A stretch of 64,000 bases of DNA, taken from a virus. Shown here piece after piece: positions 386 to 63,035 of the stretch. The notes under the pieces are model-generated. The model made no database searches and was not told where the DNA came from. It saw only the letters and a list, made by a program, of their open reading frames with translations. Position numbers and translations under genes: made by a program. The stretch covers positions 32,001-96,000 of the IMG/VR virus record IMGVR_UViG_3300037487_001316; one strand, 5' to 3'. Within the stretch, counting starts at the first letter, position 1, and every line of letters starts with the position of its first letter.

Positions 386-805
386 ATGGGTAAGAAAGGC
401 GTATATAGTGATCCTCTGTGCAAAACATGTGGAGACACTGATCCTTCACATTTCTTCAGAAGAATGAAATCGATGTGTGGAAAGTGCCATTCGAAGGACA
501 TAGGAAGAAGGTTAATAAATTCGAGAGAAAAGGCAATAGAATATAAAGGTGGAAAATGCGAAAGTTGTGGGTATGATAGGTACCGTGGAGCATTAGAATT
601 TCATCATAAGGACCCTGCTGAAAAGGATCCTTTAGGATTAAGAGCGTATAAACTTGAGAGACTGTATGCTGAGGTTGATAAGTGTATTTTACTTTGTGCA
701 AACTGCCATAGAGAGGAACACGGGAGACTCCGGCTAGAAGAAAAGGAAGATAGGCTGCATGGCGCGGAAACGGTCTTGAAAACCGTCCCATTTAGTAATA
801 GGTGA
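386..805 (+). CDS. HNH endonuclease with Zn-finger N-terminus
   Basis: CxxC pairs, GGKCESCGY...LEFHH.D...LLCANCHREEH; sits in tRNA array; 3' end overlaps tRNA-Ser. Confidence 0.85.
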   Translation: MGKKGVYSDPLCKTCGDTDPSHFFRRMKSMCGKCHSKDIGRRLINSREKAIEYKGGKCESCGYDRYRGALEFHHKDPAEKDPLGLRAYKLERLYAEVDKCILLCANCHREEHGRLRLEEKEDRLHGAETVLKTVPFSNR

Positions 806-48074: not shown

Positions 48075-48824
48075 ATGTATTATGTTTATGAATTAAAGTA
48101 TCCCGCATCAAATATTACTTTTTATGTGGGTAAGGGTAAAGGACGTAGGGCCTCTTACCATACGATGAGAAATAAGAAAGGTTGTTGGACAGATAATAGG
48201 TACAAAGATAATGTTATTAGACAAATTCTTAATACGGGCGTCGACCCCTTGATAGAATATGTATTTTATACGGAAGAAGAAAATATAGCATATAACTTCG
48301 AGGAAATGTTGATAAAAAAATATGGAAGACGGTTATTTGACGAAAAAGGAATATTAACAAATATATGTGAATCGAGTAGGCCACCGCATTCTGTATATAG
48401 CACAGAGCGTAAGGAAAAATATAGAAAACGAATGGTTGGGAATACACTTGCATTAGGAAGAATACAGACAACAGAAGAAAAAGCACAGCGTGGTAATACA
48501 TTGGCGGAGTCTTATAAGACAGGCAAGAGGCAGGTTACTGACAAGATGAGAGAAGCATCAAGAATTACTCATACAGGAAAGATAGTTAGCGAAGAAACAC
48601 GAAAGAAACAATCTATAATAGCAAAGAATAGACCGCCATTGTCTAAAGAGAGTATAGAAAAAAGTAAAAAAACAAAGATAGAAAGGGGTGTATTGCCGCC
48701 AAATAGGAAGAAGATTACTATTGACGGTATTACCTATAATTCGATAAGAGAGGCAGCAGTAAGTTTAGTTATCACCGAATATAAAGCAAAGAATTTATCA
48801 GATGAATATAGTAAAAAAATATAA
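48075..48824 (+). mobile_element. free-standing GIY-YIG-type homing endonuclease with NUMOD-like DNA-binding repeats
   Basis: YYVYEL...FYVGKGKGRR, E..LI..YGR...G.LTN, HTGKIVSEETRKKQS, ITIDGITYNSIREAA. Confidence 0.8.
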
Positions 48825-57736: not shown

Positions 57737-59179
57737 ATGAAACTCTCTAAAAACATTATTTTAAATTCTGACTCGTACAAATACAGTCAGTTCAATCAAT
57801 ACCCTAAAAATACCGAATATGTGTATTCTTACATTGAATCGCGTGGCGGTCAGTGGAACAAAACAGTCTTTTTCGGACTGCAGGCATTTATTAAGGAGTA
57901 TTTGACTACTCCAATCACAAAGGAAGATATTGATGTTGCGGAAGCCATTATCACTGCTCACGGTGAACCGTTTTATCGGGAAGGGTGGGAATATATTCTT
58001 ACGGCGCACGAAGGTCGTCTTCCAGTCGTCATTAAAGCGGCCCCAGAAGGTTGTCTCATACCAACTAAGAACGTATTAGCCACAATTGAAAACACTGACC
58101 GCAACTGCGGCTGGCTGACATCGTTTCTTGAGACTGCAATTCTTCGCGCAATTTGGTATCCGACTACTGTAGCAACAAATAGTTACGAATCGAAGAAAAT
58201 TATCCTCAACGCATTGGAGAAAACAGGTGACCCCACTCTTATTGATTTTAAGTTACATGATTTTGGTGCTCGTGGCGTATCGAGCATGGAAAGTGCTGGT
58301 CTCGGGGGAGCAGCTCACCTCATTAACTTCATGGGTACTGACAATATTAGTGCTCTACTCTACGCTCGCGAGTATTATGGTACTGATATGGCAGGATTCT
58401 CCATTCCGGCCATGGAGCATAGTACAGTAACCAGCTGGGGACGCGAAGGAGAAGTAGACTCATACAGGAACATGCTGAAAACACACGGTAAGGCGGGTTC
58501 TCCGATTGCGTTTGTGTCTGACTCATACGACATTTACAATGCCTGCAAGATGTGGGGCACTGAACTGAAACAAGATGTGCTGGATTCCGGTGCAGTCGTT
58601 GTCATTCGTCCTGACTCAGGTGAGCCAAGCGAAGTAGTTACCAAGTGTCTCTACATTCTGGAAAAGTACTACGGTTCTGTGAAGAACGCTAAGGGCTTCC
58701 GAGTGCTGAACAATGTGCGTGTCATTCAAGGTGACGGCATCGATCACGCCACAATTCGCTCAATTCTGTTTGTCATGGAACTTGCAGGCTTCTCTGCTGA
58801 CAACGTGGCATTTGGTCAAGGTGGTGCGCTGCTTCAACAAGTCAACCGTGACACACTACAGTTTGCTATGAAGTGTTCTGCGATCGGTGTTCGTGAGTAT
58901 GTAGAGTTTAGCGATGATCCAACATTTGTCACCCCGTCTCGGGTAGAATGGCGTGATGTGTTCAAGGATCCGATCACTGATCACGGCAAGGTCTCCAAGA
59001 AGGGTCGCGTAACTCTTTGGAACAGCGGTGGCGAGTATGTATCTGCTGTGGATCAACCACGCGGTTGGGCTGACAAGAGTTTCGGACCATGGGTTGAGGC
59101 TCTCTCGGAAGTTTATCGTGACGGTGTGTTGGTGAAAGAAATCACCTTTGAAGAAGTCCGTGCAAACGCTCGGAGGTAA
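57737..59179 (+). CDS. nadV: nicotinamide phosphoribosyltransferase (NAMPT)
   Basis: DSYKYS, LHDFGARGVSS, F.GTD, SIPAMEHS, VSDSYD, IRPDSG, IQGDG, FGQGG.LLQ, K.SKKGR. Confidence 0.95.
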   Translation: MKLSKNIILNSDSYKYSQFNQYPKNTEYVYSYIESRGGQWNKTVFFGLQAFIKEYLTTPITKEDIDVAEAIITAHGEPFYREGWEYILTAHEGRLPVVIKAAPEGCLIPTKNVLATIENTDRNCGWLTSFLETAILRAIWYPTTVATNSYESKKIILNALEKTGDPTLIDFKLHDFGARGVSSMESAGLGGAAHLINFMGTDNISALLYAREYYGTDMAGFSIPAMEHSTVTSWGREGEVDSYRNMLKTHGKAGSPIAFVSDSYDIYNACKMWGTELKQDVLDSGAVVVIRPDSGEPSEVVTKCLYILEKYYGSVKNAKGFRVLNNVRVIQGDGIDHATIRSILFVMELAGFSADNVAFGQGGALLQQVNRDTLQFAMKCSAIGVREYVEFSDDPTFVTPSRVEWRDVFKDPITDHGKVSKKGRVTLWNSGGEYVSAVDQPRGWADKSFGPWVEALSEVYRDGVLVKEITFEEVRANARR

Positions 59180-59180
59180 C

Positions 59181-59477
59181 ATGAACATCTACACCGTCCG
59201 AAACAATCTGAAAAACACAATCGTTGGCAAGGAGGAACACCTTGCCAAACTCATACCTAATGCCCAAGAGGCAGTGACACCATTTGTTGCCGATCGTATT
59301 GCTATAAAAACAGCAATCCAATACCTTTCAGTCAACATTGGCGAACTCAGGCGTATCCTTCGGGATGTGGAACAATGCTGTAAGAAGGCTACCGATCAAT
59401 CCTGGGAGGCTAACCCAGATCGTATGGGCGGTGCCTCCACAGCAGACGAAATTAATGAATCTAGAGCCTGGAGGTAA
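59181..59477 (+). CDS. hypothetical protein
   Basis: GGAGG SD; SWEANPDRMGG motif. Confidence 0.65.
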   Translation: MNIYTVRNNLKNTIVGKEEHLAKLIPNAQEAVTPFVADRIAIKTAIQYLSVNIGELRRILRDVEQCCKKATDQSWEANPDRMGGASTADEINESRAWR

Positions 59478-59499
59478 TTATGTCGAGCCGGGCTCTTTT

Positions 59500-62361
59500 T
59501 TATTCGTCTCTTGATGTAGCTACAGTTAGACCAGCTGTACCTAACTTCATTACATCGCCCTTTCCTAATACGGTGCTTTGATAAATTAATGGAAATATCA
59601 TTATATCATTGTCACCCTCATTAGGTCCTAATACATAACGACCATTTGGTCTTAATCCTGCAGCATTTGCTTCAGCAGCACTTAAAGATATGCAAGGCAG
59701 CTTAGTGGCACCCTCAGTCTGTCTTTCTTTCTGTGTTCTAATATGGCTTGTCTTTAGTCCCGATGACTGTTCAAGTGATATCATTAATGTTGGTCTATTT
59801 TCATCATTACTGATATTCGCATAAAATTGTTTACCGAATTCTTTAGCAAAATCTACATTAAAATCGATAGTGACTGATTTTTTAGATTGAGTATCTGTTC
59901 CACCACCGGAATTGATCCACTCCTGGGCATCACTTACGGCATCTTTATTACTCAGTGATACTCCTCTGTGCTTTTCTTCACCCCTTCTATCTAACACCAT
60001 CCATTCTGTCTTGCCACCATCTGTTGATGGGCGATATCTAATTGTCCAACCATGAAAATCTATATTTACGGGTTTGGCCTTTGGTTTAGCTGCCTGTGCA
60101 TCTGTGTGTTGTTTTCCTAATATATCAGCGAATTGATTCATATCGACTGCTTCCAAGAATTTACTTAATCTACTTTCATACGTTTCAGCTAGACCAGCCG
60201 CCTGCGCTTGCTGATCTAGTTGAGCTTTCTTTCTGACCAACTCCTTTTTCATGACAGGACTCTTAGAAGTATGCGGATCCATTTGTATACGTTGTAATTC
60301 TTTACGGCGAGAGAAATAAGCATCTTTACTTAATGCTGGTGCGGCATCTTCTACTTTTACAGTAGATCCTCTCCACTTATCAGTGACATCATTTAGTACA
60401 TCTTGATAATTTACATCGTTAGATGGAGCACAACGATTGATGCCACCCATACCACCTTCATTTACATCACCAATCATAGTTGCATAGTCATCCATTGTGA
60501 GTGTTCTGCCTTCCTGGCTTAACTCGATTAACTTCTCGGCTGCATTGTGCAAATCTAAGTCGGTTTTTGCGTCTTCTTTGGCGTATTCCATGATCCGAAT
60601 CAATAAAGGTACATCTACTGTTACTGTATCGGCAGGATTATTGATTTCTTCGCCTTCCGCCACACCTTTTCTGCCCATCTCACCTTGACGCATACTGTAG
60701 TCAGTATAATCATCTTCGGAGCCTTGGTCAAATGAACCATCTAAACTAGCATCATTAAACGAAGTCGACCATGCATCTTGATATATAGAATCTTCTGGAT
60801 CGTATCCTAAATGTTTAGCAACACGGGCGCCCATCTGTTGGATTGTCTCTGCATCCTTGCCTTGGTCGTATAGCTTGATCAATACACCGGCAATCTTATC
60901 CTTCATTTGTTCGTATTTGATATAGCCGGGAGTAGAGCCTTCCGCCACACCTTGACCCATTGTCTGAACCATACCTGGCTCGAATTTACGTAGATTGATT
61001 CTGCGTGCTTCTAACCATTTTTGTATATCAGGACGATTAAAATTGAAAATCTTACATTCTGCATCAGCATATTGTTGTTGTAAGTCTCCTAACTGCTCTT
61101 TATCTTTAATTCTGGCATAAACTTTCTGTCCATTAGATAATTTAGCATAGAACAGTATATCCTTTCCAGCGTAACCATATGACTTATCTTTAAGTTTACC
61201 TAATGCACGTGGTAAATCTTGTTGTGTGACTCTTTTGGCCTTATCATAATCTGTTCGAGCTAATTCTTTTGCCTTATCTATTCTTGCCGGTACATATCTT
61301 TTCACAGTTTCGCGATCTAATTCATTAATTTGCTCTTCGTCCACATCTTGTTTTTCTGTTGCTGCCTTCTGTGCTGCCCTTCTTTTATCACTTTCACCTT
61401 GATGAAGTGTTGCTTGGTGAATTTTATGATAAAGTTCATCACCTTTCTTATAATCGCCAGCGTCATCCGCAGCAGTTTTTTGTTTACCTATCGCAGCCTT
61501 ATATTTGGTTATAATGTTGTCCATCTCATTTACTTCGGTAGATTCTTTCATCTGACCTAATAACTCTTGTGCTTTTTCTACACTAATTAGAAATCTACCA
61601 AAACGCTGTGGATCGGCAGCTTTCTCTAGATATTCTTTACTATAACCCGATGAAGGCTTTTCTGCAGACGCAGGCGCAGATGTTTGTTGTTTACCGTTTT
61701 CTCTATCCTGTAATTCTGCCTTGGCATTATCAACACTTACCATAAACCGCCCGAAACGATTAGGATCTGCTGCTTTTTGCAAATATTCGGTACTATAACT
61801 ACTGAGATCCTGCCGATTTTGTTGTTGTTGAACACGTTGATTTAATGTAACTTGATCTTGTGGCTGAAACCCTTGCTCTGGATTAAGAGATACGCCGCCA
61901 GCATGTGCGCCACCCGAGCCTAGCGATCCCAATGCCACGGCACCAGCCGCCACCGCATTTTTCCACCCTGCTTCTGTGATCTCATCATCTCCATCTGCAA
62001 GTTTTTCCACAACAGTAACATTATTAGTTGATGTTTTCATTAGTCTGCCATCAGCTAGACGGAAAAATACCACATTCTGATCAATTCTTTCAACTTTACC
62101 TTCCATGTCTGTCTTATTAGTTCGGATATTATCACCTGGTCTGGGAGTATCAGACATATCTTCGTTGGCTGTGGCACGTTCATCACGTTGTCTTTGTTCC
62201 GAACGATCTTGCTCTCTATGCCATTCATCATTACCGGAGTTTTTTCTGGGTGTAGAAGGAAGAGCCTTTAAATGCTTTCTTGATTGTAGATAATCAGTGA
62301 CTCTTTTAGTAATTTCAGGTCCCGATGGAATATCGGCTTCATTAACTTGTGATAACTTCAT
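59500..62361 (-). CDS. modular head-internal polyprotein-like protein (953 aa)
   Basis: MKLSQVNE start after minus-strand GATAAATA (62384-62391); many [VIL]xE sites; duplicated KAADP.RFGRF module; two GVAEG repeats. Confidence 0.75.
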   Translation of the reverse strand: MKLSQVNEADIPSGPEITKRVTDYLQSRKHLKALPSTPRKNSGNDEWHREQDRSEQRQRDERATANEDMSDTPRPGDNIRTNKTDMEGKVERIDQNVVFFRLADGRLMKTSTNNVTVVEKLADGDDEITEAGWKNAVAAGAVALGSLGSGGAHAGGVSLNPEQGFQPQDQVTLNQRVQQQQNRQDLSSYSTEYLQKAADPNRFGRFMVSVDNAKAELQDRENGKQQTSAPASAEKPSSGYSKEYLEKAADPQRFGRFLISVEKAQELLGQMKESTEVNEMDNIITKYKAAIGKQKTAADDAGDYKKGDELYHKIHQATLHQGESDKRRAAQKAATEKQDVDEEQINELDRETVKRYVPARIDKAKELARTDYDKAKRVTQQDLPRALGKLKDKSYGYAGKDILFYAKLSNGQKVYARIKDKEQLGDLQQQYADAECKIFNFNRPDIQKWLEARRINLRKFEPGMVQTMGQGVAEGSTPGYIKYEQMKDKIAGVLIKLYDQGKDAETIQQMGARVAKHLGYDPEDSIYQDAWSTSFNDASLDGSFDQGSEDDYTDYSMRQGEMGRKGVAEGEEINNPADTVTVDVPLLIRIMEYAKEDAKTDLDLHNAAEKLIELSQEGRTLTMDDYATMIGDVNEGGMGGINRCAPSNDVNYQDVLNDVTDKWRGSTVKVEDAAPALSKDAYFSRRKELQRIQMDPHTSKSPVMKKELVRKKAQLDQQAQAAGLAETYESRLSKFLEAVDMNQFADILGKQHTDAQAAKPKAKPVNIDFHGWTIRYRPSTDGGKTEWMVLDRRGEEKHRGVSLSNKDAVSDAQEWINSGGGTDTQSKKSVTIDFNVDFAKEFGKQFYANISNDENRPTLMISLEQSSGLKTSHIRTQKERQTEGATKLPCISLSAAEANAAGLRPNGRYVLGPNEGDNDIMIFPLIYQSTVLGKGDVMKLGTAGLTVATSRDE
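60652..60953 (-). repeat. 17-bp perfect direct repeats flanking an in-frame 285-bp unit
   Basis: GCCTTCCGCCACACCTT at 60652-60668 and 60937-60953 (minus strand AAGGTGTGGCGGAAGGC, encoding GVAEG). Confidence 0.9.
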
Positions 62362-62492
62362 AAGAAATCCTTTTCGTTTAAGCTATTTATCCATAATTTG
62401 ATCTTTCAGTTCACATTGTGTATAATGACTTATCCCTAGGACTAAATACTAGTCCCTTGTATATCCAAGAAGGGAATTTAGGAGAAAGAAAG

Positions 62493-63035
62493 ATGATAAC
62501 AGCAAAAATTCTCCTTGCATATCTTTTGAGCACAGCCAACTTCGTCGGAATCGACGTTGACACATCAAAGATTGATCCAGAACAAGCGTATTGCTTGGCT
62601 GAGAACATCTATTATGAGGCCAGAAATGAAGATATTCGAGGTCAATTTGCAGTTGCTTCTGTTACCCTAAATCGTGCAAATGATGCACGATTTCCAAATA
62701 CTGTATGTGGTGTGGTTAAATATACTGCTGTATCTCGTATCAGTAAAAAACTTGTCTGCGCGTTTTCCTGGTATTGCGAAAATGACAAGAAGGGTAGAGA
62801 AATACCTGTAAGAAATAAAGACGGAACCGTTAATCAACGAGTAGTTGATCAATTTCAGGTTGCTAGTATTGTAGCGATTACAGCACTTGGCGGAACTGTC
62901 GAAGACAACACAAATGGGGCAACCCATTTTCACAACCCATACACGAGTCAGCCGGCATGGCGTAATGAGTTAAAGAGAACCATAAGATTAGGTAATCACG
63001 ATTTTTATAAGATGCCACCACAGAAAGTAGATTAA
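62493..63035 (+). CDS. SleB-like cell wall hydrolase (Hydrolase_2)
   Basis: CLAENIYYEARNE..GQ.AVA.VTLNR, FP.TVCGVV, FSWYC, GATHFH, GNHDFY; AGGAG SD upstream of ATG 62493. Confidence 0.9.
   Translation: MITAKILLAYLLSTANFVGIDVDTSKIDPEQAYCLAENIYYEARNEDIRGQFAVASVTLNRANDARFPNTVCGVVKYTAVSRISKKLVCAFSWYCENDKKGREIPVRNKDGTVNQRVVDQFQVASIVAITALGGTVEDNTNGATHFHNPYTSQPAWRNELKRTIRLGNHDFYKMPPQKVD

Follow-up and report, generated by a model that had tools for sequence, protein, structure and literature searches.

We analyzed a 64,000-nucleotide stretch of viral DNA (the window), which corresponds to bases 32001-96000 of the 134,154-base IMG/VR record IMGVR_UViG_3300037487_001316, and identified a short repeated word, encoding Gly-Val-Ala-Glu-Gly (GVAEG), that brackets a protein module inside a long open reading frame (ORF), P0001. 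Comparison with other phage contigs supports well the view that this word is an in-frame DNA joint at which modules are swapped, and we consider this likely. That the same joint is also a protease site is plausible, with the balance tipping slightly in its favor. The best explanation overall, which we hold with moderate confidence, is a codon-locked swap joint that doubles as a hydrophobic-x-Glu site for a prohead protease. The joint, with the consensus CAAGGTGTGGCGGAAGGC (Q-G-V-A-E-G), would separate small, mostly unrelated modules in long mosaic late genes, and its users would be uncultured freshwater jumbo phages of the T4 superfamily.

An exact search of the window located two copies of AAGGTGTGGCGGAAGGC on the minus strand, at 60652-60668 and 60937-60953, and no further match on that strand even when 3 mismatches were allowed. 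The copies start 285 nt, or 95 codons, apart, and both lie in frame within the 953-residue P0001 (59500-62361, minus strand), where they bracket STPGYIKYEQ...SMRQGEMGRK. The flanks are unrelated, with no second repeat of at least 12 nt common to the neighborhoods of both copies. An earlier note on this DNA had described the exact 17-bp pair, its in-frame spacing, and its unrelated flanks, and these descriptions were borne out. In an AlphaFold2 (AF2) model of P0001, with a mean predicted local distance difference test score (pLDDT) of 70.7, both joints fall in linkers with pLDDT<50 between confidently folded modules, and pLDDT is also below 50 at ITE-130, VDE-342, INE-347, and VNE-635. The layout of the gene is as follows.

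62384..62391, minus strand: GATAAATA box, a candidate late promoter, 23 nt upstream of the P0001 start codon.
59500..62361, minus strand: P0001, a mosaic, putatively late ORF of 953 aa, with a conserved N-terminal domain, a variable module chain, and a conserved C-terminal domain.
62338..62361, minus strand: N-terminal 8-residue leader MKLSQVNE, followed by A, which resembles the T4 capsid-targeting sequence and may serve in targeting.
61972..61980, minus strand: non-canonical joint I128-T-E130, followed by A, preceding a Gly-zipper or signal-like segment.
61333..61350, minus strand: decayed third joint QDVDEE (aa 338-343), CAAGATGTGGACGAAGAG, in frame, with 5/18 mismatches (13/18 nt identical), in the pLDDT<50 segment 337-348.
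60937..60954, minus strand: joint word copy 1, CAAGGTGTGGCGGAAGGC, encoding Q470-G-V-A-E-G475, within the pLDDT<50 segment 471-480.
60667..60936, minus strand: cassette module of 90 aa (aa 476-565), modeled by AF2 as a helical bundle (aa 480-535) with an acidic tail of low confidence behind it.
60652..60669, minus strand: joint word copy 2, AAAGGTGTGGCGGAAGGC, encoding K565-G-V-A-E-G570, within the pLDDT<50 segment 538-586.
60457..60465, minus strand: non-canonical joint V633-N-E635, followed by G, preceding the conserved C-terminal region, in the pLDDT<50 segment 631-645.
59503..60336, minus strand: conserved C-terminal alpha/beta domain (aa ~676-953), with pLDDT mostly 75-97 and 31-58% identity in most homologs.

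One explanation for the pair is a chance repeat, or the debris of a recent local duplication, with no wider meaning. Consistent with this, the 14-mer core has only two copies across the whole 134,154-base record, and 17-mers do occur singly by chance in very large collections. However, only 0.02 copies were expected in the window, at least two matches were obtained in 0/100 dinucleotide shuffles, and the same word flanks unrelated modules in >100 phage contigs. A chance origin is thus extremely improbable.

A 16-mer of the word was present in at least 120 IMG/VR stretches. Among the matches listed, 184/189 core 14-mers lay in the GVAEG frame of ORFs of at least 100 aa (median 562 aa), and 47/132 ORFs contained 2-6 GVAEG. 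Near-copies of a 15-mer with up to 3 mismatches, counted among the matches listed after duplicate contexts were removed, were in the GVAEG frame in 318/318 cases and in the other two frames in 0. A logo of 179 distinct contexts showed conservation limited to approximately (A)nCAAGGTGTGGCGGAAGGC(T), about 18-20 nt, which at the protein level reads (K/E)-Q-G-V-A-E-G-(S), with no conservation on either side. Several genes per genome can hold the word, as in G001, with five copies at three places, and G002, with four at two. As a control, bacterial genomes had more than one copy of the 17-mer in just 1/120 loci (median GC 63%), and the 17-mer was outside the frame of the longest ORF in 32/121 cases. 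We read these bacterial occurrences as background rather than as hosts.

The spelling of the word is conserved beyond its peptide. In the ORFs of the record (GC 37.9%), GTG accounts for 14.0% of Val codons and GCG for 8.0% of Ala codons; the description of these codons as atypical therefore holds, whereas that of the genome as AT-rich applies only moderately. With the codon usage of the record, the probability of this spelling given GVAEG is 0.0009, and the probability that two copies share all five codons is 0.008. Non-seed sites, defined as other GVAEG sites in seed-bearing ORFs that are not selectable by the word search, gave a similar picture: at 27 such sites, Val was encoded by GTG in 21/27 and Ala by GCG in 19/27. 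Across 76 non-seed xVAEx sites, a count that includes duplicates, GTG was used in 58/76 compared to a background of 18.8% (p 2.5e-27) and GCG in 54/76 compared to 8.0% (p 7e-42), while GAA, at 64/76, was in line with its background of 79.7%. Four distinct loci were also found through P0001 peptides, and all 6/6 of their distinct G/DVAEG sites read GTG GCG GAA. Within the cassette of the same loci, a single codon was kept across five rows in 0/60 conserved-residue columns, a comparison that is illustrative, with the L007 row out of register. The word is therefore locked in spelling relative to codon usage at synonymous sites, rather than encoded by varied codons, the outcome that the earlier note had named as counting against its proposal.

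We next considered whether modules end at the word. A total of 123 motif ORFs were compared by blastn, and high-scoring segment pairs (HSPs) <60 nt, same-locus pairs, and ends <=30 nt from an ORF end were dropped. Internal HSP ends fell within 12 nt of a joint in 21% of 1386 cases compared to 3.7% for random places, and among HSPs of at least 90% identity in 47% of 74 compared to 6.8%; these counts include both directions per pair and near-duplicate contigs. Locus L063 has an additional 468 nt (156 codons), flanked by two word copies, at a place where L007 has a single copy, and the two loci are 97.5% and 96.5% identical on the two sides of it. Between the same two joints, L121 and L127 carry unlike content of 833 and 1484 nt, respectively. 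Cutting ORFs at joints yielded 199 internal modules of at least 35 aa that grouped into 166 families; 25 families occurred in two or more ORFs, and 22/25 of these had more than one kind of neighbor. Recognizable Pfam domains in 73 motif ORFs were DUF6321 (6), GNAT (4), GP88 (2), deaminase (1), and cytidylyltransferase (1), and some modules matched PHROGs labeled 'virion structural protein' (phrog_13484 in 5/73 ORFs).

Alleles of P0001 itself also differ in module content. Among 83 homologs, aa 1-130 and aa 633-952 are common to most, and the middle varies. The cassette is present at 71-98% identity in 14/83 homologs of otherwise different content, with one more at 53%, and an unrelated gene, that of P0052, has it at 98% amino acid identity. 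DNA matches to the cassette start at ORF nt 1406-1409, next to the start of the first word at nt 1411, and end at nt 1684-1709, with the second word at 1696-1709. At the extremes among relatives from metagenomes, L291 (528 aa) has no inserted module and L288 (809 aa) has at least five joints, and the V633-N-E635 border reads K-I-A-E-G, G-I-A-E-G, D-V-K-E-G, or T-T-E-G in homologs. The close ortholog P0002 has near-identical flanking modules, lacks the cassette, and reads ...MVQTMG-NVTEG-EEINN... at this place. The single QDVDEE of P0001 corresponds in P0002 to two joints, QDVEEG and QGVDEE, with a further module of ~95 aa between them, and looks like a crossover product, or chimera, of these two joints.

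Further variants were found in metagenome contigs. A lake contig of run X7 skips 60658-60954, with its joint at 60657 and nine letters between that encode N-V-T; a single contig, of depth 3.7 and with 30 nt on one side, supports this joint. One X13 contig agrees with the window as far as the first word, beyond which its sequence is unlike (loose end 60934), and the match of a second starts at 60651, immediately after the second word. Beside 61360, near the decayed joint, another X13 contig reads a near-canonical word with GGC for GGT, and in an X13 contig aa 129-275, between ITE and VNE, are skipped from the ITE-130 joint. Coverage gaps in lake-run contigs were not counted as evidence. A wild variant in runs X13/X7 (window 59000-62900) replaces aa ~665-737; like the aa 129-275 skip, this is a module-sized change away from canonical words. 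Taken together, P0002, the X7 and X13 contigs, and L291 compared to L288 argue against the constant module content that the earlier note had offered as grounds for rejecting it, and the HSP-end pile-up, the L007 and L063 pair, and the cassette ends support its prediction that the word marks presence/absence borders of modules.

These data are consistent with a mechanism in which the word would supply ~17-18 bp of identity for UvsX-type general recombination or template switching. Exchange at the word would leave the reading frame intact, modules between intact words would spread, and unused words would decay.

Decay of the word provides information about its function at the protein level. In 178 decayed copies, mismatches per nucleotide were 11/20/15 for the first Gly codon, 19/1/26 for the Val codon, 11/17/28 for the Ala codon, 3/0/15 for the Glu codon, and 9/55/98 for the last Gly codon. 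The T of the Val codon, which keeps a hydrophobic residue (V/M/L/I) at P3, and the GA of the Glu codon (P1) are nearly untouched, while P4, P2, and P1' drift. The T4 protease gp21 is described as cutting on the C-terminal side of the Glu in L/I-X-E, with little else determining the site (PMC9026906), and phiKZ-type proteases as recognizing S/A/G-X-E (PMC5694885). Both Peptidase_S77 and Gp23 were found in 3/5 large related contigs and in Pseudomonas phage PA5oct, which is the closest cultured relative by large terminase (TerL) and synteny, and the T4 order of protease, scaffold, and capsid was found in the related contigs with Peptidase_S77/Gp23. Four capsid proteins have [L/I]-x-E (LKE, LSE, IAE, LVE) at one aligned place ~27 residues before IRRVMP, which may be their maturation site.

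Leaders and signals near joints also bear on cleavage. As in the MKLSQVNE of P0001, [LIVM]-x-E ends at residue 8 in 16/84 other listed proteins; the T4 capsid targeting sequence is reported to have 10 residues, with processing dependent on residues 8 and 10 (PMC9026906). The stand-alone proteins P0074 and P0063 begin with a short N-terminal leader ending in V-Q-E or V-A-E, followed by the same cassette. In L155 (G002:C1:179108-182118, minus strand), a GVAEG joint midway through a 644-aa ORF is immediately followed by a Tat-type signal of near-textbook form, ..DRRGFLKGLGAAAV..ADA, then QE. A Tat-type signal at such a position makes sense only with a new N-terminus. A second module family shares this Tat-type leader. 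A hydrophobicity screen detected signal-like starts behind joints in 2/263 module starts, and the RRxFL pattern matched four times behind joints, one match being the Tat-like leader, so on the sequence evidence export would be a side feature and not a rule.

Several observations weigh against the combined explanation of a swap joint and protease site. To the limits already given for the HSP-end counts and the X7 contig can be added the length of the word, as 17-18 bp is short for homologous recombination; a figure given for T4 recombination is '<50 bp' (PMC2839356). Replication genes, not head genes, are the usual neighbors of motif genes, with DNA polymerase next to them in 47 loci. The 10 largest neighbor clusters comprise DNA polymerase, a mosaic transglycosylase protein, a DNA-binding protein, an ATP-dependent protease, a cytidyltransferase-domain protein, and others without assignment, and no integrase, recombinase, or nuclease gene was annotated among them. 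In addition, the cassette-less allele reads N-V-T-E-G (AAC GTA ACA GAA GGC) and not one canonical word, and the gain or loss of the cassette was therefore no plain crossover of the two copies found in P0001. Cassettes may instead move together with both words and enter weaker V-x-E-G joints, or other partners may have taken part.

This 'empty site' is hard to square with a word-to-word homologous crossover, and it suits an alternative in which the word is the target of a sequence-specific factor, a homing-type endonuclease or recombinase that drives cassette conversion, or has an RNA-level role, such as pausing of translation where modules meet. A length of about 18 nt is usual for sites of nucleases or recombinases, the genomes are rich in HNH and homing endonucleases, including in the PA5oct annotation, and GTG and GCG are rare codons. 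However, the neighbor clusters named above include no such enzyme gene, and the word was out of frame or intergenic in 0/318 cases, although a pure DNA site would need no frame. There is also no conserved flank able to pair into an RNA structure, and the rarest Val codon is GTC, not GTG. We consider a specific factor or an RNA-level role improbable.

At the protein level, the P3 residue of the joint is Val, compared to L/I in the T4 rule. Some homologous borders have Thr at P3 (T-T-E-G, T-K-E), and at others the motif is lost (KGMREG, GMEEVR); cutting at every border therefore cannot be essential. No Peptidase_S77 or Gp23 was detected by hidden Markov model or protein search in G002 (343 kb, 99% complete, four words), and neither was found in the window's own record, which is rated 35% complete. 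These borders, and a genome with words and no detectable T4-type protease, fit an alternative in which the word is a recombination linker only. It would be a self-propagating in-frame homology patch, the products would be uncut multidomain 'polyvalent' proteins, whether packaged or not, and V-x-E would be kept for linker structure or a binding partner. All of the DNA-level evidence also fits this alternative, and the GNAT (4/73), deaminase, and cytidylyltransferase domains of motif ORFs are as in polyvalent proteins (PMC5512222). However, a linker would provide no reason to protect base 2 of the Val codon and bases 1-2 of the Glu codon while P2, P4, and P1' drift. The Tat-type signal within the 644-aa ORF needs a free N-terminus, and P0074 and P0063 place the same cassette directly after a short leader and V-Q-E or V-A-E. 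For these reasons, we regard a purely recombinational role as unlikely.

Returning to the combined explanation, V-A-E followed by G would be a site for a T4-type (gp21-like) prohead protease. After late synthesis, the polyprotein would enter the prohead, guided by its short N-terminal leader and/or the conserved domains at its ends, and would then be cut into separate small proteins; we infer cleavage and packaging from these comparisons, and the small proteins may be injected. A more elaborate version, which we find possible but doubtful, is a selected, dual-coded 18-nt junction, both crossover site and protease site, amounting to an integrase-free integron inside a gene. It would let giant phages build ever new sets from hundreds of small modules in an open pool. 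The products would be capsid-delivered effectors, some of them periplasm-bound via their own signals, and module circles or a word-specific nuclease may assist.

Late expression of P0001 is suggested by its upstream box. Of 43 GATAAATA sites in the record, 15 lie 15-32 nt upstream of ORF starts, and such boxes, found for example at 355, 12230, 20838, 25193, and 45181 in the window, precede three genes labeled 'virion structural protein', two for homing endonucleases, and that of the head-tail adaptor. GATAAATA is probably the late promoter of this lineage. The exact T4 late-promoter octamer, TATAAATA, is under-represented in the window (3 matches compared to 9.9 expected), and the related GATAAATA box was taken as the candidate instead.

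The record is a fragment of a PA5oct-like jumbo myovirus that encodes rIIA, tail sheath, large terminase, NAMPT, ribonucleotide reductase, and thymidylate synthase. Its TerL is 62% identical to that of PA5oct, and the PA5oct gene order is matched for rIIA, adaptor, dNMP kinase, sheath, tube, and structural proteins verified by mass spectrometry around the terminase. HNH and homing-endonuclease genes are present at window positions 386-805 and 48075-48824, behind late-type boxes, and PA5oct has Hef-like homing endonucleases at places syntenic to them. Outside the window, a 156-aa ORF (G000:C1:115619-115759) has a short match to the N-terminal portion of the T4-type capsid protein (Pfam Gp23 positions 3-31, E 2.3e-7) but lacks the remainder of the fold. 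No exact copy of the word is present in PA5oct, and its two one-mismatch matches compare to four for a reversed control.

P0001 is the sole long minus-strand gene of its neighborhood, located between NAD-salvage genes and an endolysin, and contigs with the gene come from 11 studies, in runs from freshwater, lakes, and sediment. Searches of P0001 matched 0 families in Pfam and gave only one weak match in PHROGs (E 0.012). For the C-terminal domain, Foldseek found no match in the PDB at E<=0.001, and the best BFVD matches were uncharacterized rhizobial-phage proteins; the ESM Atlas had no usable match for the cassette or this domain. Cultured phages gave no DNA match to the gene, and a protein search matched only aa 577-630, in two 735-kb uncultured records. 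A tblastn search with P0085, the neighboring virion-like protein, gave no match.

Additional features were noted within P0001 and around motif genes. The cassette region (60650-60949) is GC-richer, at 45%, than the record at 37.9%. A direct repeat of 76 nt, 71% identical and 153 nt apart, is located at 61571-61646 and 61724-61799 (aa ~189-264) and encodes two copies of a helical unit, YS.EYL.KAADP.RFGRF..SV..A.ELL. The unit YS.EYL.KAADP.RFGRF is also found in mosaic ORFs of other phages (e.g. G002), behind a Gly-zipper or signal-like segment. In P0001, the AGWKNAVAAGAVALGSLGSGGAHA segment at 61900-61980 (aa 128-155) resembles a glycine-zipper membrane helix or a Sec-type signal; segments of this type are preceded by ITE, LTE, VEE, or VAE in four different proteins, and one motif ORF matched Pfam Gly-zipper_Omp. 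Many motif genes (L031, L032, L047, L062, L128, and others) adjoin tandem arrays of small ORFs (120-450 aa). The arrays share a Cys-rich module of ~50 aa, ..CPHC.GPMF....KKDACY.KV.S.YKVWPSAYASG.LV.CRK.GA.NWG.., that is also found within mosaic ORFs, and a 1051-aa neighbor adds a transglycosylase domain.

Among known systems, the internal proteins of T4 (IPI-III, Alt) share with the genes described here a short N-terminal leader ending in hydrophobic-x-Glu, diverse and fast-changing cargo behind a conserved targeting/cleavage element, and, in the relatives that encode one, a T4-type protease. However, T4 has a separate gene for each cargo, with one N-terminal leader, whereas many cargos are chained here and the site is internal and repeated. 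The T4 site has L/I at P3, while Val is found here with a fixed DNA spelling, and packaging and cleavage here are predictions from sequence. The 'His boxes' of T-even tail fibers are conserved in-frame motifs that serve as crossover points to swap adhesin segments, and in this they resemble the joint. They act in homologous tail-fiber genes and affect receptor specificity, whereas the joint lies between unrelated modules in several gene families and is also protease-like.

PeSL cassettes (Arbiol et al. 2010, PMC2839356) are similar in that a short conserved DNA element surrounds variable units and breakpoints lie in the element. The PeSL authors proposed the phage's own recombination on short homology and drew the integron analogy themselves (PMC2839356). 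PeSLs are described there as ~100-bp intergenic regulatory elements (promoter, stem-loop terminator, Shine-Dalgarno sequence) around whole genes, whereas the joint is ~18 nt long, within an ORF, translated, and frame-keeping. Excised PeSL mini-circles were shown in that study, while the joint is known from assembled contigs alone. Polyvalent proteins (Iyer et al. 2017, PMC5512222) are likewise long mosaics of unrelated small domains, including GNATs and peptidoglycan hydrolases, for which delivery alongside the DNA and proteolytic release are predicted. In ~36% of them, a peptidase (MPTase or similar) is embedded as a hub domain (PMC5512222), whereas the Pfam matches of the 73 motif ORFs included no zincin-like MPTase or other peptidase family. 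In the main text of PMC5512222, 'linker' and 'shuffling' had 0 occurrences and 'recombination' five, among them passages of the reference list.

Integron cassettes are also exchangeable units in an array, with a repeated bounding site and one upstream promoter, although their units are genes and those here are protein modules in one frame. No IntI-type integrase was annotated among the 10 largest neighbor clusters, and no attC-like imperfect palindrome was found, conservation across the 179 contexts being ~18-20 nt without flanking arms. The integron likeness drawn in the earlier note is thus a loose one, in that the exchangeable array stands and the integrase and attC structure do not. By analogy, the joint would work like a merger of the T4 internal-protein system with PeSL-type shuffling while belonging to neither. 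We found no description of such in-frame joints in the main texts of the published papers searched, and those on PA5oct contained nothing on them either. Queries on polyproteins, prohead proteases, and jumbo-phage ejection proteins returned only SPN3US papers, and 'GVAEG' in text returned only unrelated ones.

If this explanation is correct, the joint would represent a simple route for viruses to evolve by in-frame shuffling of protein domains, in which one very short sequence is read twice, as a patch of DNA homology and as a site for a maturation protease. Exchange would be safe because the frame is kept and modules are freed as independent proteins. In practice, the word would help to find cargo genes in metagenomes and could guide the design of T4-type capsids loaded with foreign proteins. 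Small phage proteins that are possibly delivered into hosts would form a large, unexplored pool, with 166 families in our sample. The 'linker sequence' theory of modular phage evolution, framed for intergenic regions, would come to cover coding sequence as well.

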